DNA of 39,539 bases from a virus. The DNA is taken from positions 1 to 39,539 of the IMG/VR virus record IMGVR_UViG_3300033552_000025. The stretch is one strand, 5' to 3'. A model generated the notes under the pieces. The model saw nothing but the letters and a program-made list of their open reading frames with translations, ran no database searches and was not told the DNA's origin. Below are positions 1-39,539 of the stretch, in pieces. Each line of letters starts with the position of its first letter. The stretch's first letter is position 1. The translations under genes were made by a program, and so were the position numbers.

Positions 1-127
1 TACGGTGGTCAGCGCCTCGCGCAACACTGTCACGGCGGATTTGGTTGAGTTGGTCATGGTCGGTCCTTAGTTGTTAGTTTCTTTGTCCAGCCAACGTATG
101 AAAGCACCGGACATCCAGCCTGCTACG
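1..127. repeat. Terminal direct repeat, left copy (identical to 39413..39539)
   Basis: First 127 nt are repeated exactly as the last 127 nt. This fits an assembly overlap of a circular or circularly permuted molecule. Positions 1..57 (-) duplicate the 5' end of the gene at 38612..39469. Confidence 0.95.
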
Positions 128-183
128 TAGTAGGCAAGAGCCTTCAAAATTCCGATTACCCATGGCTCGATGATGAAAGTCAT
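67..183 (-). CDS. Small hydrophobic protein, 38 aa (MTFIIEPWVIGILKALAYYVAGWMSGAFIRWLDKETNN)
   Basis: Hand-translated ORF below the 60-aa track cutoff. ATG lies 3 nt after the stop of the 187..1833 gene. It has one TM-like segment, and an AAGGA RBS for the next gene follows its stop. The ORF spans the artificial contig junction. Confidence 0.3.
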   Translation of the reverse strand: MTFIIEPWVIGILKALAYYVAGWMSGAFIRWLDKETNN

Positions 184-186
184 CGC

Positions 187-1833
187 TTACCCCTTCGCTT
201 TTGTAGCGTCAGCCGGGGTGGCGCTAGATGCGAGGGCGCGGATAGCGGCTTCGATAATTTGGGTGCGGAACTCGTTGTTTGCGCCAAGGATCGTTCCGTT
301 GTCCCAATCAGCATCACTCATATTGGCAAGCTTGAGAACCTTGAAGATGGCGCGTGCTGCATTGCTCTCAAACTCCGCCTCGTTCAGCACCTTGGCGCGG
401 CTGTCCTCGCTACATGGACGGCTGTCGAGCAGTTGGGCGATCTGGTAATTCAGACTCGGACGCCGCCAGCCCGCGACATGCGGCTTCAAAATTTCATTAA
501 TCGCATCTTCCAGTGGCAATTTGCTCGCCCCCTGTCCGCTCACTGGCGCAGCCGAAATAGACTGCTCGGGCTTGTCCAGAAGCCGCGCAAAGGCACGATC
601 AAAGGCGGCAAGCTCATGCTCCCAGTACGCGGCGCGGTCTAGTTCGCGGGCATTCAATTCGTGGTTGATGCATTCCGTGATCGCATCGCGCCATGCCGCC
701 CGGTGCGTGGTGAAATTGCCGGGAATATGCTGGCGGTCGCTCACTGGCGCAGACATGTAGGGCAACATCGCCTCAATCTGCTCGCCGGTGGCCGCTTCCG
801 GGTCGGACAGAACATCAAGGATATGCTCTGGTGCATCGTGCGCCCCAGCGATCTGGTAGGCGTAAGCGATGATCGTCAGCAGCTTCTCGGTCGGGCCGCT
901 CACTGGCGCAGCAGCACGGGCAGGCGGGGATTCTTCGGCCAGTCTGCATTTTATGGGGCAGATCGAGCCATCGCCGGGGCATGCTCCGCAATCAGGTACA
1001 GTAATCGTGGAGGGGGCACGGATTAAGCGCACAGCGGCGTCAAGCGTAGCCGAGATTGCCGCGTGCTGGATGCAATGGCTCTTACCAAGCTCGCGCGTGA
1101 TTTCCTCGAATATCGCGTTGATGTCGAACAACACATCCGGCACACACTGAGCAGGCAGGATTTCACCTGTCGCAGCAGCATCAAGCAACCTTTTGGCGTA
1201 CCGTGCAAGATTGTTGCCGTTGACCATACCGCCACTGGTCCCGGCGCAGTCGGTCAAGAACTTTTGTACTGATGCGCTCAAGAACTCACCTGCCGGCTGT
1301 GACGCACCAAAAACACTATCCGCGTATTGGCTTGGGTGCTCTTCGTGGTCCCAGGTTCTGGCGGCATACGGATTGCCATCGGCAACGTCTTCTGTTGCCG
1401 TTAGCGCTTGACGGGCGCATATTGCCATTGCGTTCGCATAACCTGAGTCGTAGGTATCCCCGCGTTGCTTGGCGTTTTCAGCGACGCTAAGCGATCCGCC
1501 CTCAAGCTGCCCCAGCGCTTCACGCAGAATGGCGATAGCGTTCACGAGCTCGTCAGTCGGCGCGCTTACATCAGCAGCCGGGGCGATAGGCTGCGCGCTC
1601 GGATAGGTGATCGTGCCTTCCGTGAATTCCTGCTTGGCAGGCATGCAATCGCATTGCGTAACTTTTTCGTCAGCGTAGACGCCATCGCAAGCCGTGCAGA
1701 TGTACGCCTTGCGAACGGTTGGCGGGGCGATAGGCTGCGCAGGGGTGGCAACAGCCTCCACAATAGCCGCACGGTTCGCCTCAGTCGGGCTGGCTGCGTA
1801 TGCCGTCATCGCGGCGTTGAATTTTTCGTTCAT
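187..1833 (-). CDS. Hypothetical modular early protein, 548 aa, with a Cys-rich (CxxC..CxC) N-terminal segment and repeated AQPIAP / APVSG linkers
   Basis: Longest ORF in the region and in line with the leftward operon. Internal exact DNA repeats encode the linkers. No family recognised. Confidence 0.7.
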   Translation of the reverse strand: MNEKFNAAMTAYAASPTEANRAAIVEAVATPAQPIAPPTVRKAYICTACDGVYADEKVTQCDCMPAKQEFTEGTITYPSAQPIAPAADVSAPTDELVNAIAILREALGQLEGGSLSVAENAKQRGDTYDSGYANAMAICARQALTATEDVADGNPYAARTWDHEEHPSQYADSVFGASQPAGEFLSASVQKFLTDCAGTSGGMVNGNNLARYAKRLLDAAATGEILPAQCVPDVLFDINAIFEEITRELGKSHCIQHAAISATLDAAVRLIRAPSTITVPDCGACPGDGSICPIKCRLAEESPPARAAAPVSGPTEKLLTIIAYAYQIAGAHDAPEHILDVLSDPEAATGEQIEAMLPYMSAPVSDRQHIPGNFTTHRAAWRDAITECINHELNARELDRAAYWEHELAAFDRAFARLLDKPEQSISAAPVSGQGASKLPLEDAINEILKPHVAGWRRPSLNYQIAQLLDSRPCSEDSRAKVLNEAEFESNAARAIFKVLKLANMSDADWDNGTILGANNEFRTQIIEAAIRALASSATPADATKAKG

Positions 1834-5665: not shown

Positions 5666-6039
5666 GCTGGCACCGGAGCTGGTGGGAAGCGCATCCAGTG
5701 GGTGATCCCAACTGTCAAATACCACTTCGTGTAAAGCTGCTTGCCGTCGTCATCAACGCCGTTGGTGATATCCGCGAAATACTGGTCAACATGGACCATG
5801 TCAACGCCGCCATCAGACCAGAGGGCCATCACCGAATAATCCCCCGCCTCTGGCAAGCGATCCTTCACGCTAATCCACTCGCTCGGCGCTGGTGCGGCTA
5901 CAGGTGCGGCAGGAATGCGCTGTACGTCAACCAGCTCGTAGTGCGAAGGGCTGCCGTCGAACTTGCAGCCAAACTCGCCCAAGATGCCGTTGTTATCGCC
6001 GGTCATCAGCACAGTCCATTTATCCGGTACATTCATCAT
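5662..6039 (-). CDS. DUF551-domain protein, 125 aa
   Basis: C-terminal half (WISVKDRLPEAGDYSV ... ITHWMRFPPAP) matches the DUF551 pattern (WISV.DRLPE ... THWMPLP). Confidence 0.7.
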   Translation of the reverse strand: MMNVPDKWTVLMTGDNNGILGEFGCKFDGSPSHYELVDVQRIPAAPVAAPAPSEWISVKDRLPEAGDYSVMALWSDGGVDMVHVDQYFADITNGVDDDGKQLYTKWYLTVGITHWMRFPPAPVPA

Positions 6040-9778: not shown

Positions 9779-9961
9779 ATGGACAAGATACCACATCCCG
9801 AATCGAAAGTCCTATCCAAGTGCGGCGACTTCTATGACGCTGAAATGTCGCGCCCTAAAGGCGATGTGTACGCCACAAAACGCGCCCTTTTGCTGTCAGT
9901 GACCGAGATGCGCCAAGCTAAGGCCGACGCCACCAAGAAAGCCGAGGCGCACCATGGCTGA
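9779..9961 (+). CDS. Hypothetical protein, 60 aa
   Basis: Track ORF in operon register. Confidence 0.4.
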   Translation: MDKIPHPESKVLSKCGDFYDAEMSRPKGDVYATKRALLLSVTEMRQAKADATKKAEAHHG

Positions 9962-10172
9962 CGTTGACGCCCTCGCATTCGACAATATCCGCGCCTACTT
10001 TCAAGAGTCCGGCGCAACAGCCTATCTTGCCGGTCATTCCCGCGACTCGCACGACCTCAATCCCCGCAGCCCTGCTATCCCCGACTTCGAAGCTGGATGG
10101 GATACCGCAGCATCAAGCCAGTTTGCCATCACGCCAGTTAAGCGTGTTGATGCGGCGCAGGTGGCGGCATGA
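9954..10172 (+). CDS. Hypothetical protein, 72 aa
   Basis: Track ORF that overlaps the upstream stop. Confidence 0.5.
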   Translation: MADVDALAFDNIRAYFQESGATAYLAGHSRDSHDLNPRSPAIPDFEAGWDTAASSQFAITPVKRVDAAQVAA

Positions 10173-15652: not shown

Positions 15653-17419
15653 ATGGCCGATAACATCCTAACCACAGACCGCACCACGGCGAATATCGCT
15701 ATTGCTGCGAAAGATGTGGCCGGTGTTCTGCTGCCCCGCAATATCATCACTGACCCGGCCGGCGCGGACATTACGCCGCTGACTGATGCCGCATTGCGCG
15801 CTGCCCCTGTTCCGGTGAGCGCAATCGCCTTGCCGCTTCCGAGTGGGGCAGCAACTGAAACCACATCGGCCGCAATCCTCGCCAAAATCATCGCCGCTCC
15901 TTCGACCGAAGCAACGCTATCCACGATCAATGGCAAGATTCCCGCAACAGTCGCCGGTTCGCAGCCCGTAACGTTACGCAACGCAGCCGGTACGGGTATC
16001 GCCTCCCTGGCACTGGCAACCACGCTTGAAGGCATTCTTACCTCGGCAGGCGCGACTGATTTCTTCTTCAGCACGGCAAACGCCACGACTGTGCAGCTTG
16101 CCGCATCAGCGACATTCACCGGCACCATCGAAAGCATCATTTCGGCGCAGGCGTGGTCGATCATCCTCACGAGTGACCAACCCGGCACGCTGACGCTTAT
16201 CGAATACATCGATGCAGCCGGTTTGCGTCCGACCTCGACCAAGACGATTGCCGTCGCTGCAAACGTTCCGCTTTCGCGCTGCTACACGGCAAACGGCAAC
16301 TACTTCAAGCTGACCTTCCAGAACACGGGCGCAAGCACGACGACCACGCTCAACATCAATACAGCATTCGGCGTGCTGCCAGCGGTAACGGGCTTGGGCA
16401 ATGGCCCTGTTGCGCTCAATGAGATCAACGGCACGGCGTTCAGCCTTGGGCAAGCTGCATCTGCCCTATCGCTGCCTGTCGCAATTGCAAGCGACACCGC
16501 AAGCGGGTCAATTACCACGCAAAACTTAGCGCCAGCTGGTGTTGCAACGGCTGGTTCGGCTGTCGAAATTACACTTAGCGGCGCGTCTACCCTGTCGATT
16601 CAGACTATGGGAACCTATACGGGTGCGCTAAGCCTTCAGGCTACATTGGACGGTACCACATGGGTAACGATGGGCGGTACGCCGCTTATCAACGTGAATA
16701 CGGGTGGCTACCTCGCATCGATCACATCGGCGCTGCAAAGCGTGTTTCAGGCTGACGTAGCAGGCTTCACCAAAGCACGCATTACCGGGCTGGCTGCTGT
16801 GACTGGCTCGGCCACTGTCACGCTGCGGACCACTGCCGGTGCTGCTGCCATGGTGGCACTCGATAACTCGCTACCAACTGGCGCGAACGTCATCGGTGCT
16901 GTTACCGGCTCAGGCACATTCACCGTTGACACGGAACTGATGGCAGCGGCCAACATTCTTGATGGACTCGCAGCTTCGACCACATCGCGTGTTGGCACCG
17001 ATAGTCTACTGTTCAACGGCACTACGTGGGATCGCGCCCGTGCCAACCTAAACACCACGACCGGCGACACTGGTGCAAAGACAGTCACTGGCAACGGCGC
17101 TACGCAAGTCAACTACAACGCTTCCGGCGCATACATCCTAATCAATATGGGAGTAGTCACCGGCACAACCCCAACGCTTGACGCCAAGGTGCAAGTGTCG
17201 ATGGATACCGGCACAACGTGGGTTGACCTCCCTGGCGCTGCGTTTGTTCAATTCACCGCTACCGGCACGAAGATGCTCGCCATCTACCCTGGCGTCACGG
17301 TTGCAGCCAATACCGCAGTAAGCGCCCCGCTTCCCCGCACCTGGCGCATTGTTTGGACAGTAGGCGGCACGACGCCTAGCTTTACGATCACGAATATCCA
17401 AGTGGCTTACATCGACTGA
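15653..17419 (+). CDS. Large Ala/Thr/Gly-rich, charge-poor protein, 588 aa, with about three beta-sandwich-like repeats (putative fibre or surface protein)
   Basis: Long ORF and first late gene. Related segments recur (LQATLDGTTWVTMGG vs VQVSMDTGTTWVDLPG). No family recognised. Confidence 0.75.
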   Translation: MADNILTTDRTTANIAIAAKDVAGVLLPRNIITDPAGADITPLTDAALRAAPVPVSAIALPLPSGAATETTSAAILAKIIAAPSTEATLSTINGKIPATVAGSQPVTLRNAAGTGIASLALATTLEGILTSAGATDFFFSTANATTVQLAASATFTGTIESIISAQAWSIILTSDQPGTLTLIEYIDAAGLRPTSTKTIAVAANVPLSRCYTANGNYFKLTFQNTGASTTTTLNINTAFGVLPAVTGLGNGPVALNEINGTAFSLGQAASALSLPVAIASDTASGSITTQNLAPAGVATAGSAVEITLSGASTLSIQTMGTYTGALSLQATLDGTTWVTMGGTPLINVNTGGYLASITSALQSVFQADVAGFTKARITGLAAVTGSATVTLRTTAGAAAMVALDNSLPTGANVIGAVTGSGTFTVDTELMAAANILDGLAASTTSRVGTDSLLFNGTTWDRARANLNTTTGDTGAKTVTGNGATQVNYNASGAYILINMGVVTGTTPTLDAKVQVSMDTGTTWVDLPGAAFVQFTATGTKMLAIYPGVTVAANTAVSAPLPRTWRIVWTVGGTTPSFTITNIQVAYID

Positions 17420-35036: not shown

Positions 35037-35167
35037 CCTACCTCACCCACTTCCTAGCCTGCATCGCTGGCATCTGGATCGGCGCTGGATTCGCCTTTTG
35101 GGCGGTCGATGTTATCCCGAGCAGCATCAGCAAAATTCTCAACCACTCACCGGACGATAAATCATGA
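35033..35167 (+). CDS. Small membrane protein, 44 aa (MTYLTHFLACIAGIWIGAGFAFWAVDVIPSS...)
   Basis: Hand-translated, with ATGA overlaps at both ends and one TM segment. Confidence 0.4.
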   Translation: MTYLTHFLACIAGIWIGAGFAFWAVDVIPSSISKILNHSPDDKS

Positions 35168-35586
35168 ACCCTCTTTTGATTGGCGGCGTATTCGATATGG
35201 GCATGAAGCTCGTTGAGCGCTTCTTTCCTGACCCGAGGGCAGCGAACGAAGCAAAGCTCGAACTGCTCCGCATGCAGCAAACGGGCGAACTGGCGCAACT
35301 GGCGGCAAACACGGACCTCGCCAAAGGTCAGCTTGAAGTCAACAAGGTGGAAGCGGCACATGATTCCATTTATGTGTCCGGATGGAGGCCCGCGGTAGGC
35401 TGGACATGCGCCGCGGCATTTGCCTATAAATTCGTCCTGGCACCCGCGGGAGCGTTCGCCATGGCCGCAGCAGGACACCCCATCGATTTGCCTGTGCTCG
35501 ACTTTACGGAGATGAGCACCATTTTGCTTGGCATGCTCGGGCTTTCGGGTATGCGTACGGTCGAGAAAATCAAAGGCGTGTCGTAG
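35164..35586 (+). CDS. Holin, GTA-type 3-TM family (DUF3154-like), 140 aa
   Basis: N-terminal FPDPRAANEAKLELLRMQQTGELAQL ... SGWRP.VGW matches the remembered GTA_holin_3TM pattern. Confidence 0.6.
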   Translation: MNPLLIGGVFDMGMKLVERFFPDPRAANEAKLELLRMQQTGELAQLAANTDLAKGQLEVNKVEAAHDSIYVSGWRPAVGWTCAAAFAYKFVLAPAGAFAMAAAGHPIDLPVLDFTEMSTILLGMLGLSGMRTVEKIKGVS

Positions 35587-35596
35587 CCTTAAACTG

Positions 35597-35848
35597 TTCC
35601 GCAAAACGCCGCGGTGAATCGCCATAGCCCGGAGGATTCGCCGCGATTGAGCTACTTTTGCGGAACGAGATTCGACCCTAAGTAGCTGTTAACGTTAAGT
35701 TAACCATCAGACTTAAAATCTCGTGCTCGCAAGGGCGTGCCGGTTCGATTCCGGCTCCGGGCACCAAGTAGCAGTAAGGTTACTTTGATATTTAGCAAAA
35801 TGCGGCCCGCACTTTACTTTTCCGCAAAATGAGCGCTTTTCCGCAAAA
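35597..35848. promoter_or_regulatory. attP region with putative arm-type sites TTCCGCAAAA
   Basis: The motif occurs at 35597..35606 (+), 35656..35665 (inverted), 35820..35829 (+) and 35839..35848 (+), flanking the tRNA-like core. Confidence 0.55.
35706..35766 (+). other. attP core: 3' portion of a tRNA-Leu(UAA) gene (anticodon loop CTTAAAA, long variable arm, T-arm GCCGGTTCGATTCCGGC, acceptor 3' strand plus CCA)
   Basis: The T-loop GGTTCGATTCC and the acceptor/CCA end were read directly. The 5' half is not tRNA-like, so this is a fragment. It is adjacent to int. Confidence 0.75.
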
Positions 35849-36958
35849 TCACTTGGTCGGCTTGACCAATTTGCCGCGGCGATGCCTCACATAATGCGCT
35901 GTCATGGCCGCGGTGGAGTGGCCTAGCTGGTCTTGTGCCGCGGCAATTCCGGACGATTCCTCTTTATCCGTTGCTGCTTTGGCACGCAAGTCGCGGAACT
36001 GGAATCCGCGGATGCCCGCTGCTAGGTCCGGATGCGCAAGTATCGCGGCATCCCGGGCGCGGTCGAACGCTCCGCGGAGCATGGCCTTAGTCATCGGCTG
36101 GCCGTCTTCGTCATTAATCAGCTTCAGCCCCATCACCTTTTGCGCACCGATCCGTGCCAGCGCCGCGGCTAACTCGCCCTCGATGGATATCCGGATCTTC
36201 TTTCCTGTCTTATTCTGATCGACCAAGAGCGCGCCGTCCTTAATGTCGCCGCGGGACAGCTTGAGTACGTCCGCGGGGCGCTGTCCGGACAGGTAGGCCA
36301 GATCCAGGGCGTCACGTAGGGCAGGTTCCGCGGATCCGCGCACCGCGGCAAGCACGGCATCATCGGTATAGGCGTCCCGTCCCCGTTCCCGAAATCCCGG
36401 GATCCCGGCGCAAGGGTTAGCCTTATCGGTCATTCCGGATCCGCGGGCGTAGTTCCATATATGGGAGAACAGCGCCTTTTCCCTGTTCGCCGGCACTTGC
36501 CCCTCATCTCCGCGGACTTTCTCGGCAGGCTTGCCCGCGGCTACTCGCTCAGAATTCCGGATCCGCTTCGCTTCGACCGTCTTTTGCACGCGCCAATCCA
36601 TAAACTGCCGGATCATTTGCGGCTGTATGTTCTCAAACGGCTCGGCGCGGTCATCAAAGAATGCGTACAGCATGTTCAATTCGCGCAGATTGATTTCCTG
36701 CGTGGCCGGCGCTTTGGTCGGAATCACATCGCGCACATACCGTTCAGCCACCATCCGGAACGTGATTAGCGCGCCCGGGTTGCCCTCGCCAAGCGTCAAC
36801 TCACCCCACTTGCGCACCGCAGCTACGTAGTCGGATCCAAGCGGGATTTCTCGCCGCGGCTTGGATCCGGTGTCGAAATAGTAGTACGTGACCTTCCCGC
36901 GGTGGCGCGCACGCATCCCGGTCGGTAAGTTCATGTTCCGTGTCGGCGTCCTGCCCAT
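35849..36958 (-). CDS. int: Tyrosine integrase, 369 aa
   Basis: A SAM-like N-domain and a catalytic domain with R..., HDLR-like FRDLRAKAAT, and LGHSTAAMTAHYVRH (H-x-x-R ... Y). The gene is next to attP. Confidence 0.93.
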   Translation of the reverse strand: MGRTPTRNMNLPTGMRARHRGKVTYYYFDTGSKPRREIPLGSDYVAAVRKWGELTLGEGNPGALITFRMVAERYVRDVIPTKAPATQEINLRELNMLYAFFDDRAEPFENIQPQMIRQFMDWRVQKTVEAKRIRNSERVAAGKPAEKVRGDEGQVPANREKALFSHIWNYARGSGMTDKANPCAGIPGFRERGRDAYTDDAVLAAVRGSAEPALRDALDLAYLSGQRPADVLKLSRGDIKDGALLVDQNKTGKKIRISIEGELAAALARIGAQKVMGLKLINDEDGQPMTKAMLRGAFDRARDAAILAHPDLAAGIRGFQFRDLRAKAATDKEESSGIAAAQDQLGHSTAAMTAHYVRHRRGKLVKPTK

Positions 36959-36961
36959 TGA

Positions 36962-37171
36962 TTACTTTCTCATTCCTGGCGGGATCCACGCCGCCTTTGG
37001 GATCACCGCGGCAGCTCCGCGGCCTTCGATCACACTCCGGGCGACGACAGCGCGCCCCGCGGGGTTGACCCAAAACGCGATTCCCATCTGTCGAAGGGAT
37101 TGTATCTGTCGCGCCTTCGTCTTGTAGCCGGTGAGCGCAATTACATCGTCCGCGGTAAGAAATGTCGTCAT
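36962..37171 (-). CDS. DUF4224-domain protein, 69 aa (excisionase/RDF candidate)
   Basis: LTADDVIALTGYKTKARQIQSLRQMGIAFWVNPAGRAVV matches the DUF4224 pattern. The gene is immediately upstream of int. Confidence 0.6.
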   Translation of the reverse strand: MTTFLTADDVIALTGYKTKARQIQSLRQMGIAFWVNPAGRAVVARSVIEGRGAAAVIPKAAWIPPGMRK

Positions 37172-37380
37172 ACACCCTCCCTATCAAACCTGCGCGGATC
37201 GTACGGCATCGCGCTCACATCACGTACCGCCCCATCCTGCCCCGGCCCGTCCTCTGTCGGAGCGCAAACGGGGCATCCTTTACCTGCACATTCGCACGGT
37301 GTCGGGGGAGGGTCGCGGAATATTGTGTCCCATCCTTCCGCGTAGCCTGCGCCGGGACGAATTCTTGAGCCCTTAGACAT
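37168..37380 (-). CDS. Hypothetical protein, 70 aa
   Basis: Track ORF in operon register with ATGA-type coupling. Confidence 0.5.
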   Translation of the reverse strand: MSKGSRIRPGAGYAEGWDTIFRDPPPTPCECAGKGCPVCAPTEDGPGQDGAVRDVSAMPYDPRRFDREGV

Positions 37381-37492
37381 TGGCCGACTCCTTCACCTTG
37401 ACGCTTATCGAAAAGCCGACGAACCACACTGTTTTGTAGCCGATGCCGTACATGCGCCAGCCCCAACCAATTCGCCCGAAATAGAGTCTCAT
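37373..37492 (-). CDS. Hypothetical small protein, 39 aa (MRLYFGRIGWGWRMYGIGYKTVWFVGFSISVKVKESANV)
   Basis: Internal ATG forming an ATGA overlap with the upstream stop. Confidence 0.3.
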   Translation of the reverse strand: MRLYFGRIGWGWRMYGIGYKTVWFVGFSISVKVKESANV

Positions 37493-38145
37493 GTCCCCTC
37501 TCCTGTTGTGGTGTGCAGCGCAGCGATAGCGGCGTCTATTTCGTCGCCAATTTCGCCTATCCCGCATTGCAGGTCATCGGCTATTGAGCAAGGTATTTGC
37601 TCGATGAGATAGACATACCGCGCCGACAGCTTGATTTCCTCAGCGAGCAGTTCCGTCGCTTCCTGCATTCCCTCCGCCCAGCCATCGCGCCGCGCCTGCT
37701 CGATTGGGTCCACCTCGTCCGCGTCCCTCTCTGCCGCGCTGTCAGCCGGTGCCGGGGTGGCGCGCCGTACCAATTCGGTCGCGGTCACATCGCGGTAGAT
37801 GTAGCGGTAGTCGGCAAGGGTGTTGTGCTTGTGGAATTGATAGCCCTTAATGCCGCCCGGGCTTGTCCATTCAATCAACCAGCCGACAGGCACCGCCTCT
37901 GCGCTCGTCCTCGGTATAGCGGGGACGGCGGGGGTGCGCTCATTCCAGGCTGCGATTGCGCTGGATTTCCAGTGCGATACGTCCTTGTAGTCGGTGCGCA
38001 CCTCGGGGCCAGCGCCGCAGCAAGTCAGCGCTCCCCACTTCACGCCATCAGCCAATTGAAAGATGGCGTCGTTCGTTACATCAGGCGATTCGCCGCACCA
38101 AGGGCAAGGTGCCGCGCGATCGGTTACTTCGTTGCTTGGGTTCAT
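37489..38145 (-). CDS. Lar-like zinc-ribbon N-domain fused to an uncharacterised acidic C-terminal region, 218 aa
   Basis: The pattern CPWCGESP ... W.ALTCCGAGP ... AIAAWNERT is the same Lar-family pattern as at 14503..14745. Confidence 0.6.
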   Translation of the reverse strand: MNPSNEVTDRAAPCPWCGESPDVTNDAIFQLADGVKWGALTCCGAGPEVRTDYKDVSHWKSSAIAAWNERTPAVPAIPRTSAEAVPVGWLIEWTSPGGIKGYQFHKHNTLADYRYIYRDVTATELVRRATPAPADSAAERDADEVDPIEQARRDGWAEGMQEATELLAEEIKLSARYVYLIEQIPCSIADDLQCGIGEIGDEIDAAIAALHTTTGEGT

Positions 38146-38615
38146 TCATCGCTCCCGGTGTCCGAATTGTGAATGGGTAATGGCATCCAGCCGTCCGGCT
38201 CGCTGGCCTTGTCAAACATGCAGCCGTTCCAGAAGTACCAACCAGCGTCAATTGCCGGATGATCCTCGATACAGTGCCCTCCCTGCATGTAGTGGCCGAC
38301 AAGGTACTTGCCGGGGATTCCGGCGCGCATCTTCACGCGCAACAGCACTTCGGCGCCGTCCAGTGGCGCGCTATCCATCGGCAGCACGTCACGGCTCGCC
38401 AGCTTGCGCGCTTCCATGATGGCGACGCGAAAGCCTAGCCATGCGCTTTCGGTGTCGCTGTCGATGAAGCGGCTGAACTTGCCGTTCACTTCCATTGCGC
38501 CCTCGGGGAAGTCCGCGATTTTGTGCTCGCGGAGATAGACCAGCCCCTTGAGGAACATACGGCGGATCTCGGCTACGCTGCCGGGGATGGTTGATAAGGT
38601 TGCGGCGCTGATCAT
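38142..38615 (-). CDS. Hypothetical protein, 157 aa, with a DUF551-like C-terminal half (…DGWMPLP)
   Basis: The call rests on the pattern LPMDSAPLDGAEVLL ... GWYFWNG ... PDGWMPLP. Confidence 0.55.
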   Translation of the reverse strand: MISAATLSTIPGSVAEIRRMFLKGLVYLREHKIADFPEGAMEVNGKFSRFIDSDTESAWLGFRVAIMEARKLASRDVLPMDSAPLDGAEVLLRVKMRAGIPGKYLVGHYMQGGHCIEDHPAIDAGWYFWNGCMFDKASEPDGWMPLPIHNSDTGSDE

Positions 38616-39469
38616 GTCGCACTCCCTGCTCGCTTGGCGAGGATGGCGCGATACACCACTTTGCCTTCGCTATCGAAGTCGTACAGCGGCGCCGGCCACT
38701 CGCCCGATGCAATTGAAGCGATGGACCTCATCAGTATTTCGCGCACGCCCTGCACGTTCGTGCCGCTGACTTGCAAGCCGTCGAAGCCATACACGCTCAA
38801 CGTAGTATCGATGCCAAGAGAATGCAGCACGCCGATAAGCTGCTCGTCAGTCACCGCCTGTGCTGGCGCAACCGGGGCGGCAGGCTTGCAGAGAATATCG
38901 GCAGCGCGCACGACAAACTCGTTGACCGACTTCATGCCGCCCTTGCCGTCAAAGCGCGCCAAGTTGTTGAGCAACTTCGTCGTATCATCGTCGGACAACG
39001 TGTTCTGTCCGGCGCACACTTTGCAGATCGTGCGGCGCTTGTGGCCCATGAAGCCGATACCGCAATCGCTGCATCGATTCTCATAGTTGCCATTCTCGTG
39101 TGCGAAGTCTTCCGACCAATCGGCGGCGGTCGCTACATAGCCCGCCTGCTCGGCTTTCGCCTCCTGATGGGCGGCAAGGCGACCAAGTGGCGTGGCGATT
39201 GCGCTTGGCGGGATGAAGTCCGCATAGAATTCGCTGCTCACGTCCATTGGCTCTTTACCGAAGAAAATCTCATGCCCGGTAGGCCATTCGTAGAGCCATG
39301 CCACAGCCTCGCCCGTAGTCTGGATAGCTGCGTGCTCGGTGGCGACTAGGACTGCGCGCGCGTCAGCTTCAATTGCGACATAGCCGGGGCCAACAGGCAG
39401 GCCCTCGTCTAGTACGGTGGTCAGCGCCTCGCGCAACACTGTCACGGCGGATTTGGTTGAGTTGGTCAT
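38612..39469 (-). CDS. Hypothetical protein, 285 aa, with a central Cys cluster (CSDCG...CKVC)
   Basis: Track ORF with an AAGGA RBS. Its 5' end lies inside the terminal repeat and so also appears at 1..57. Confidence 0.6.
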   Translation of the reverse strand: MTNSTKSAVTVLREALTTVLDEGLPVGPGYVAIEADARAVLVATEHAAIQTTGEAVAWLYEWPTGHEIFFGKEPMDVSSEFYADFIPPSAIATPLGRLAAHQEAKAEQAGYVATAADWSEDFAHENGNYENRCSDCGIGFMGHKRRTICKVCAGQNTLSDDDTTKLLNNLARFDGKGGMKSVNEFVVRAADILCKPAAPVAPAQAVTDEQLIGVLHSLGIDTTLSVYGFDGLQVSGTNVQGVREILMRSIASIASGEWPAPLYDFDSEGKVVYRAILAKRAGSAT

Positions 39470-39539
39470 GGTCGGTCCTTAGTTGTTAGTTTCTTTGTCC
39501 AGCCAACGTATGAAAGCACCGGACATCCAGCCTGCTACG
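39413..39539. repeat. Terminal direct repeat, right copy (identical to 1..127)
   Basis: Exact match to 1..127, read directly. Confidence 0.95.

Follow-up and report, generated by a model that had tools for sequence, protein, structure and literature searches.

What leads a phage to clear one short palindrome from almost its whole genome and to crowd it into the genes by which it integrates? The question is raised by the IMG/VR virus record IMGVR_UViG_3300033552_000025, whose 39,539 bp (the whole stretch analysed here, called the window below) are the complete genome of a temperate phage in which the hexamer CCGCGG is confined to the integration module, made up of the integrase gene int, the excisionase-like gene xis and the attachment region attP, together with a patch of the adjoining holin gene.

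Confinement and saturation of the hexamers

All 23 CCGCGG positions given in an earlier note on this DNA (35390 to 37150) were recovered by pattern search, which revealed no further copy in the window; the resulting array occupies 35390..37155 at a density of about one site per 77 bp. The total is in itself ordinary, dinucleotide shuffles giving 27 ± 5 sites, and the distribution alone is abnormal. The 37.7-kb remainder of the genome, described in the note as purged, contains 0 sites against 21.2 expected from base composition, 15.4 from a fourth-order and 23.7 from a second-order Markov model, and the excess claimed for the 1.8-kb module amounts to 23 sites against the 1.2 expected from composition, or about 20 times. 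The probability of the other 22 sites landing within so small a span is about 1e-28. In an unbiased comparison of 4- to 8-mers between the module and the remainder, CCGCGG ranks top by far (P about 1e-60), the next ranks going to overlapping k-mers, to GGATCC and to TCCGGA.

The sites lie inside open reading frames (ORFs) in 22 of the 23 cases, wherever the protein permits, the last one being located in the attP arm. Fifteen of them fall in int, a tyrosine integrase gene (369 aa; 35849..36958, minus strand; Pfam PF00589), which forms with the adjacent xis (36962..37171, minus strand; 69 aa, DUF4224; Pfam PF13986 and PHROG excisionase families) a tyrosine recombinase with its directionality factor, as in lambda-type integration modules. 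The boundaries of the array are those given in the note: the first site is found at about codon 76 of the 140-codon holin gene (35164-35586, plus strand; a strong match to the GTA_holin_3TM family) and the last one in codons 6-7 of xis. The GC content of the module is similar to that of the remaining genome, with no step at the module boundary. The flanks of the hexamers differ, the repeat families that can be found being chance extensions around the hexamer, and a dispersed repeat family of the REP or MITE-like type was rejected because the copies share nothing beyond a short core.

For each gene we enumerated every position at which synonymous codon choice could yield the hexamer and expressed the realised sites as a fraction of the possible ones. 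CCGCGG is realised at 15 of 19 possible positions in int, at 4 of 5 in xis, at 3 of 6 in the holin gene and at 0 of 190 in all the other genes together. At two of the four unfilled positions of int (36016 and 36336) the place is partly taken by a realised CCGCGG or GGATCC. Resampling of int with the codon usage of the genome yields a mean of 2.5 sites and a maximum of 8, and synonymous shuffles within int average 3.35 sites and in 1000 trials never exceed 9; set against these shuffles, which the note had named as a possible refutation, the 15 sites observed show that the enrichment is not a trivial result of codon or amino-acid usage.

The same test was applied to the two other palindromes that the note had counted in int, and its figures of at least 7 TCCGGA and 6 GGATCC were confirmed. 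Seven GGATCC are present in the module between 36332 and 36987 (at 36332, 36400, 36437, 36559, 36833, 36863 and 36982), six in int at 6 of 7 possible positions and one in xis at the only possible position, with 2 elsewhere in the window and 2 of 101 possible positions realised in the genes elsewhere. TCCGGA occurs 8 times between 35377 and 36754, of which seven lie in int within 35948..36759 (at 35948, 36027, 36190, 36284, 36434, 36556 and 36754; 7 of 8 possible positions); there are 2 copies elsewhere in the window, and 1 of 159 possible positions is realised in genes elsewhere. The 13-mer ATTCCGGATCCGC is indeed repeated at 36432 and 36554 and read in two reading frames, as GSGM and as RIRN. 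A perfect 11-nt inverted repeat, CGGATCCAAGC / GCTTGGATCCG, spans 36832-36869 in int and carries GGATCC in each arm and CCGCGG in its 16-nt loop.

In the backbone, defined as positions 1-35163 and 37172-39539 of the window, fourteen other 6-bp palindromes (CTGCAG, GACGTC, GGGCCC, GTCGAC, GTGCAC, TGGCCA, GGTACC, TTCGAA, GCTAGC, ACCGGT, CAGCTG, CGGCCG, GTATAC and CGATCG) stand at less than a quarter of their codon-aware expectation, the first six having 0 copies each against 6-16 expected. Such a broad avoidance argues for a heavy and diverse restriction pressure on the phage lineage. The genes int and xis realise the same fourteen palindromes at 0 of 87 possible positions against 6.4 expected, and contain the palindromes not avoided by the backbone at the expected level (8 against 5.8). 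The module is therefore adapted to the same restriction pressure, CCGCGG and, in this phage, GGATCC and TCCGGA being specific exceptions, and cleavage within it would not be harmless in general. The SacII-type avoidance that was the first part of one reading in the earlier note is thus retained, with 0 of about 190 positions used in the backbone and at least 14 other palindromes avoided. In this respect the backbone is like that of other phages known for restriction-site avoidance, and int shares the avoidance of the fourteen, but for one to three palindromes the module is opposite in sign, near-saturated and conserved, which avoidance theory does not predict.

Conservation of the array and selection on it

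The DNA of the closest int homologues, among the thousands of integrase homologues that exist, was fetched for comparison. One of the contigs fetched, L001, has the same sequence as the window. Seven independent relatives recovered from other samples, namely L109 (a 41.8-kb IMG/VR viral contig), L002, L003, L004, L005 and L181/L182, form a clade with the window, their int genes having 81-91% amino-acid and 75-85% nucleotide identity to that of the window. Each of these int genes carries 12-18 CCGCGG and each xis gene 0-4, a single copy in the attP arm is usual, and the backbones contain 0 sites in 18.9, 8.6, 3.1, 4.4, 1.4 and 1.0 kb, respectively. The rest of their sequence shows no relation to the window except for short stretches in some of them (two blocks of early genes, of 0.3-1.5 kb, in L109 and about 0.1 kb in L003 and L004), and nothing outside xis, int and attP is common to all the members of the clade. 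GGATCC was not found in the available DNA of the relatives, int included; in the window lineage this hexamer has switched from avoided to saturated. A further palindrome, CCCGGG (SmaI/XmaI type), is partly enriched in the int genes of L002, L109 and the window (4 of 7, 3 of 6 and 3 of 9 possible positions, those of the window including 36052, 36396 and 36774) and under-represented in the window backbone, where 4 of 116 are realised; possibly this is another specificity that is treated likewise, though less strongly.

In more distant homologues the array disappears. The comparison with related phages proposed in the earlier note separates homologues of at least 81% identity, which share the palindrome load, from those of at most 71%, which do not: the latter contain 0-3 CCGCGG, whether at 57-71% identity (Duganella, Massilia, metagenomic and viral contigs) or at 27-48% (Pseudomonas), and the flanks of two 70% homologues carry 4 and 2 copies. 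A collection of reference-genome contigs, scanned once, contained integrases at most 61% identical, in Duganella and Massilia. When about 180 loci with related integrases were scanned in sliding windows for clusters of any 6-bp palindrome, clade members alone were detected, and a search of IMG/VR viral contigs for CCGCGG triplets returned no second integrase example among the matches listed, which were mostly tandem repeats or GC-rich genomes. Compared with lambda-type integration modules the present one is ordinary in gene content and architecture, and the homologous modules of at most 71% identity are ordinary in their palindromes as well; the hexamer array is confined to the clade at or above 81%.

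Within the clade, four-fold degenerate positions of the int genes are 88% identical inside CCGCGG and 46% identical outside, where they are essentially saturated. All six positions of the hexamer are conserved (0.82-1.00). Five sites are present in 6 of 6 aligned int sequences and many others in 5 of 6, the remaining positions turning over. Possible positions number 16-21 in the integrases of the clade, and 75-90% of them carry the site; in the 70% homologues 3 of 14-15 are filled, and in the more distant ones (64% or less) 0-1 of 2-12. Amino acids have also changed where sites were created. In the int of L004, unique replacements generate CCGCGG sites (NPG to RRG, SKA to TAV, AIL to AAA), and in that of the window 5 of the 6 GGATCC and 3 of the 7 TCCGGA rest on replacements found in no relative, the site-creating changes including GAG to GSG, RIK to RIR, GIK to GIP and DAA to GSA. 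The same is observed in the holin gene, in a patch at 35377..35449 (plus strand) that is peculiar to this phage and contains one TCCGGA and three CCGCGG: relative to L109, whose homologous holin has no sites, the three CCGCGG rest on RPF to RPA, CGAA to CAAA and APF to APA. The mosaic joint that the earlier note had placed in the holin gene is therefore doubtful, since the window holin gained its sites via amino-acid changes. Taken together, these comparisons support, as far as sequence can, a strong, long-term and hexamer-wide selection that maintains the array and to which the protein has adapted. They agree to that extent, by the selection and the site-creating replacements, with the second reading of the note, in which the palindrome array is functional, whichever function it may serve.

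The import of the module, recently and from a foreign source, into a CCGCGG-avoiding phage would account for the sharp boundaries at xis and in the holin gene and for the mobility of the module among backbones. This second part of the first reading in the note, like the trivial effect of codon or amino-acid usage that may be considered with it, is to be rejected: codon shuffles yield 3.4 sites and not 15, and composition would predict about one-twentieth of the density. The saturated module is found in eight phages whose unrelated backbones are free of sites, the hexamers being conserved at 88% against 46% in relatives that are synonymously saturated. A recently acquired foreign island is equally at variance with the similar GC content and with the palindrome avoidance that the module shares with the backbone, and it is this avoidance of the fourteen other palindromes that rules out a recent import. 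The avoidance extends through the clade, whose int genes contain the fourteen 0, 0, 0, 3, 0, 2 and 0 times against about 5.5 expected each, and the four outgroup int genes tested contain them 14, 7, 8 and 11 times.

Could the hexamers be driven by mutation instead of being selected? A biased mismatch correction of the VSP type, or a biased gene conversion in heteroduplexes between prophages, might push near-cognate hexamers towards the site of a methyltransferase. Such heteroduplexes would be formed precisely in the module, the sole segment shared by these otherwise unrelated phages, and the identity between int alleles does vary along the gene. We nevertheless hold this mechanism to be very improbable, because all six positions of the hexamer are conserved and not the methylated cytosine alone, the variant alleles are not mainly C-to-T neighbours, non-conservative amino-acid changes have been fixed, and each of the three specificities would need a drive of its own, GGATCC included. 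The known methyltransferase for GGATCC makes N4-methylcytosine. A repair bias limited to T:G mismatches was rejected on the same conservation of all six positions and on variants of all kinds. Decay of the backbone sites by deamination of 5-methylcytosine was rejected as well, there being no excess of CTGCGG/CCGCAG (ratio 0.86) or of CCGTGG/CCACGG (0.64), and this lack of a deamination signature in the backbone also weighs against a mutational drive. The vertebrate CpG islands, in which a methylatable CG motif is depleted genome-wide and dense in a short gene-associated island, are an analogy only: here the depletion occurs without a deamination signature, and the island is far above neutral expectation, not merely spared.

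A function at the RNA level has also been envisaged, in which pairing between the self-complementary hexamers would fold the int/xis mRNA or join it into dimers, for instance in retroregulation. The array does run along the 3' portion of the leftward transcript, made up of xis, int, attP and the antisense of the holin gene, and includes the perfect 11-nt hairpin at 36832-36869. The minimum folding energy of the int mRNA, however, is not unusual compared with codon-shuffled controls (z = +0.58 for the window, -1.86 for L109 and -0.89 for a 70% outgroup), a function of this kind requires neither palindromes nor their avoidance on both strands across the genome, and the enriched motifs are restriction specificities. 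We regard it as barely plausible.

The attP region and the surroundings of the module

The attP region (35594..35850) consists of arm-type repeats flanking a core. The repeat TTCCGCAAAA is present as an inverted pair at 35596-35606 and 35656-35666 and as a direct pair at 35819-35830 and 35838-35849, and it is found also in L109 and L004. The core (35700..35766, plus strand), as read from its sequence, resembles the 3' part of a class-II tRNA, with an anticodon loop CUUAAAA, a long variable arm, a T arm and a CCA end, and would be consistent with the 3' part of a tRNA-Leu(UAA); its match to the tRNA clan is weak (E = 0.17), and ARAGORN reported no complete tRNA at this place. The contigs L001, L003 and L005 end inside the core, at window positions 35731-35739, as a mixture of free and integrated phage in the samples would lead one to expect. 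The sole match in the GenBank phage collection is 57 nt of this tRNA-like core, and no close relative was found among isolated phages.

The single non-coding CCGCGG of the array (35609..35614) is located between the inverted arm-type repeats, on the opposite side of the core from int, and would after integration sit at the opposite end of the prophage. It has counterparts between the arm repeats of L109 (10624) and L004 (5723); in L002 a CCGCGG follows the end of int at a distance of 17 nt from the stop (9889). In L004 the whole attP cassette, arm repeats and core (5707-5960), is inverted relative to int by comparison with the window (35594-35850) and L109 (10420-10650), and its int is orthologous to theirs despite this inversion; L002 matches the window attP at 9935-10018 in the same inverted orientation, the contig ending after 84 nt. 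The hexamer GTTAAC (HpaI type), of which about 6 copies are expected from composition, has its sole two copies in the genome at 35688 and 35699, adjoining the attP core, and L109 has two at the equivalent place. The idea that the CCGCGG hexamers might be weak arm-type sites of Int (TCCGC...) was rejected, since T is found in 12 of 46 window flanks and the flanks in L109 are mostly G, C or A.

The module is preceded by the end of the late operon, the region being ordered as a phrog_3108 lysis-region protein, a small ORF, the holin gene, attP, int and xis. A 195-aa antisense ORF overlaps the holin gene (35038-35625, minus strand), and its GC3 is gene-like enough to mislead simple gene callers; the strong match of the plus-strand ORF to GTA_holin_3TM makes it probable that the antisense one is spurious. 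Directly upstream of xis, a small Cys-rich ORF (MSKGS...C..C...CAPTDDGPGQ; 37168-37380, minus strand) is found again in L003 (2559-2747) and L002 (8373-8555), being present in some clade members and not in all, which speaks against it as a reader of the array. Two genes upstream of xis and in the same leftward operon as the array lies the gene of a 218-aa Lar-like zinc-ribbon protein with a putative restriction-alleviation domain (37489..38145, minus strand; PHROG 599, and Pfam PF14354 at 25.2 bits for a cut-off of 28.6).

Elsewhere in the genome, two large ORFs (187-1833, minus strand, 548 aa, and 15653-17419, plus strand, 588 aa) have no Pfam or PHROG match and are absent from the other clade members; as the sequence of a Type II restriction enzyme often gives no hint of its function, either might encode a nuclease. 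The backbone of L004 contains a GIY-YIG nuclease gene (44-499, minus strand) resembling the catalytic domain of I-TevI, which was dismissed as a reader of the array for this resemblance and for having no detectable similarity to the CCGCGG-specific GIY-YIG restriction enzymes. The nearest named relative of the terminase comes from Cupriavidus (64% identity), so that the host probably belongs to the Burkholderiales.

Candidate readers of the array

What the sequences themselves demonstrate is the confinement of the sites, their saturation and long-term conservation, their coupling to the avoidance in the backbone and the addition of further specificities by individual lineages. The coupling is apparent from the homologues of at most 71% identity, which have 0-3 sites, with CCGCGG in the flanks of the 70% homologues and no avoidance of the other palindromes in the outgroup int genes. 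From this we infer that the array is read by restriction-modification (R-M) enzymes and that it benefits the phage. The explanation that we tentatively favour, while granting it somewhat less than an even chance, is that xis, int and attP carry a selection-maintained array of Type II R-M targets through which the integrity of the module would be made dependent on modification, the remaining genome having been purged of these targets. CCGCGG, the specificity of SacII, Cfr42I, Eco29kI and DraI, is saturated across the integrase clade, and GGATCC (BamHI type) and TCCGGA (BspEI/AccIII type) are added in this phage.

The readers would be the R-M enzymes of the usual hosts, homodimeric or tetrameric proteins recognising the whole symmetric hexamer, and the integration module would be the sole segment of the genome that they could mark or cut. 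The integrity of int, xis and attP would thereby depend on the modification state of the phage DNA: a fully modified DNA would keep a working module, and an unmodified or under-modified DNA would be broken in the module only. The phage might gain a gate on lysogeny, or a fixed place for a recombinogenic break where two convergent operons meet; such a cleavage, between the early-left and the late operon, would be colinear with the prophage map and would fall in the segment shared with resident prophages. Alternatively, the benefit might be obtained through methylation itself.

Several features would be accommodated by this explanation. The saturation without positional logic, the exclusion elsewhere, the coupling and the lineage-specific additions make host R-M enzymes the best candidates for the readers, and since the motifs concerned are all symmetric classical Type II hexamers, in a set that varies with the lineage, variable host R-M repertoires would fit better than a single dedicated regulator. 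R-M systems for CCGCGG are well documented. The Cfr42I enzyme is active solely when bound to two CCGCGG sites (PMC2241918); isolated copies would serve two-site enzymes of this kind badly, and a dense cluster like the present one would be ideal for them. The motif of this Type IIF enzyme (CCGC/GG) is identical to that of the array, which would explain the sensitivity of the module, not why sensitivity should be selected. The DraI system is known to methylate CCGCGG at N4 of the second cytosine (PMC10855626).

Other observations weigh against the R-M explanation. The host R-M systems for CCGCGG, GGATCC and TCCGGA are putative. Pfam and PHROG scans of 30 phage ORFs, taken from the early, lysis and packaging regions, detected no methyltransferase or restriction enzyme. 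The 23-38 sites make an unmodified genome sensitive to restriction and so seem to cancel the benefit of purging the backbone, and the avoidance of the other palindromes by the module implies that the benefit would be specific to the enzymes of a 'home host' or would come via methylation and not via cleavage. There is no visible positional logic of the hexamers with respect to promoters or binding sites, and the evidence consists entirely of the comparative sequence analysis of eight related modules.

A more specific proposal, which we advance as doubtful, is that these phages use the restriction enzymes of the host as a programmed site-specific nuclease, the genome being invisible to them except for a super-substrate, the integration module. 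Under-modified DNA would be broken at int/attP, where the two convergent operons meet, and at no other place, and the break would either abolish the lysogeny functions or yield a linear molecule, colinear with the prophage, that would feed recombination-dependent replication or exchange with resident prophages sharing the module.

The same sites could act without being cut at all. Resident cytosine methyltransferases, possibly orphan ones, would target them, and dense methylation or hemimethylation would mark parental against new DNA, or home against foreign DNA, and would tune the expression of Int and Xis or the recombination itself. We consider such a purely epigenetic control unlikely, although it would explain why the module avoids the other palindromes, which are pure liabilities, yet keeps these, and although one site is conserved in the attP arm between the Int arm-type repeats and N4-cytosine methylation of CCGCGG is documented (PMC10855626). 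The known examples of such control employ few sites within protein-binding sequences, with neither saturation of ORFs nor forced amino-acid changes; three specificities, whose marks differ chemically, would have to converge on a single read-out, the total avoidance in the backbone would not be explained by methylation by itself, and the methyltransferases are putative.

The nearest analogy is offered by the clusters of GATC in P1 pac, in oriC with SeqA, in IS10/Tn10 and in Mu mom, which gate DNA transactions with few, Dam-dependent sites. The likeness lies in the local excess of a short palindromic methyltransferase target within a function of a mobile element, which makes a sensing of the modification or replication state plausible. 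The differences are that up to three specificities are represented here by 23-38 sites in coding sequence, that these motifs are absent from the remaining genome, and that 22 of the 23 CCGCGG lie in ORFs with one in an attP arm, and not in a protein-binding or cleavage sequence as in P1 pac, oriC and IS10.

A binding array for a dedicated symmetric protein foreign to R-M, such as a silencer or nucleoid protein of the host or the phage coating int and xis and having its motif excluded elsewhere, would agree with the conservation of the whole hexamer, with a density for which more seems to be better, with the strict exclusion from the remainder and with sites centred on int. It is an improbable solution: 6 bp is a short site for a regulator, the saturation by GGATCC and TCCGGA would demand two more proteins, no candidate gene is common to all clade members outside xis and int, and the motifs affected are classical restriction specificities.

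In conclusion, we found no description of such an array in the literature searched, on CCGCGG in integrases or prophages, on restriction-site avoidance and integrases, on clustered or over-represented recognition sites or on palindrome avoidance in lysogeny modules, and a saturated and conserved target array combined with avoidance in the backbone is out of the ordinary. Restriction sites are usually treated as liabilities; here, one hexamer is purged from 95% of a genome and saturated in one module, at the cost of amino-acid changes, a pattern that has persisted through long evolution and on different backbones. If methylation sensing is the mechanism, the array would be a far-reaching variant of the known logic of methylation sites, and if the hosts' enzymes serve as a programmed nuclease, it would represent a new class of interaction between phages and R-M systems, based on selected sensitivity and not on evasion. 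The ratio of realised to possible sites per gene is a simple statistic applicable to every temperate phage genome. Could host R-M enzymes be the readers of this array? If so, the sequence of an uncultured phage could by itself reveal the R-M repertoire of its host, here CCGCGG with, for this phage, GGATCC and TCCGGA, and restriction-modification would be, besides a barrier, an input to the lysogeny machinery.

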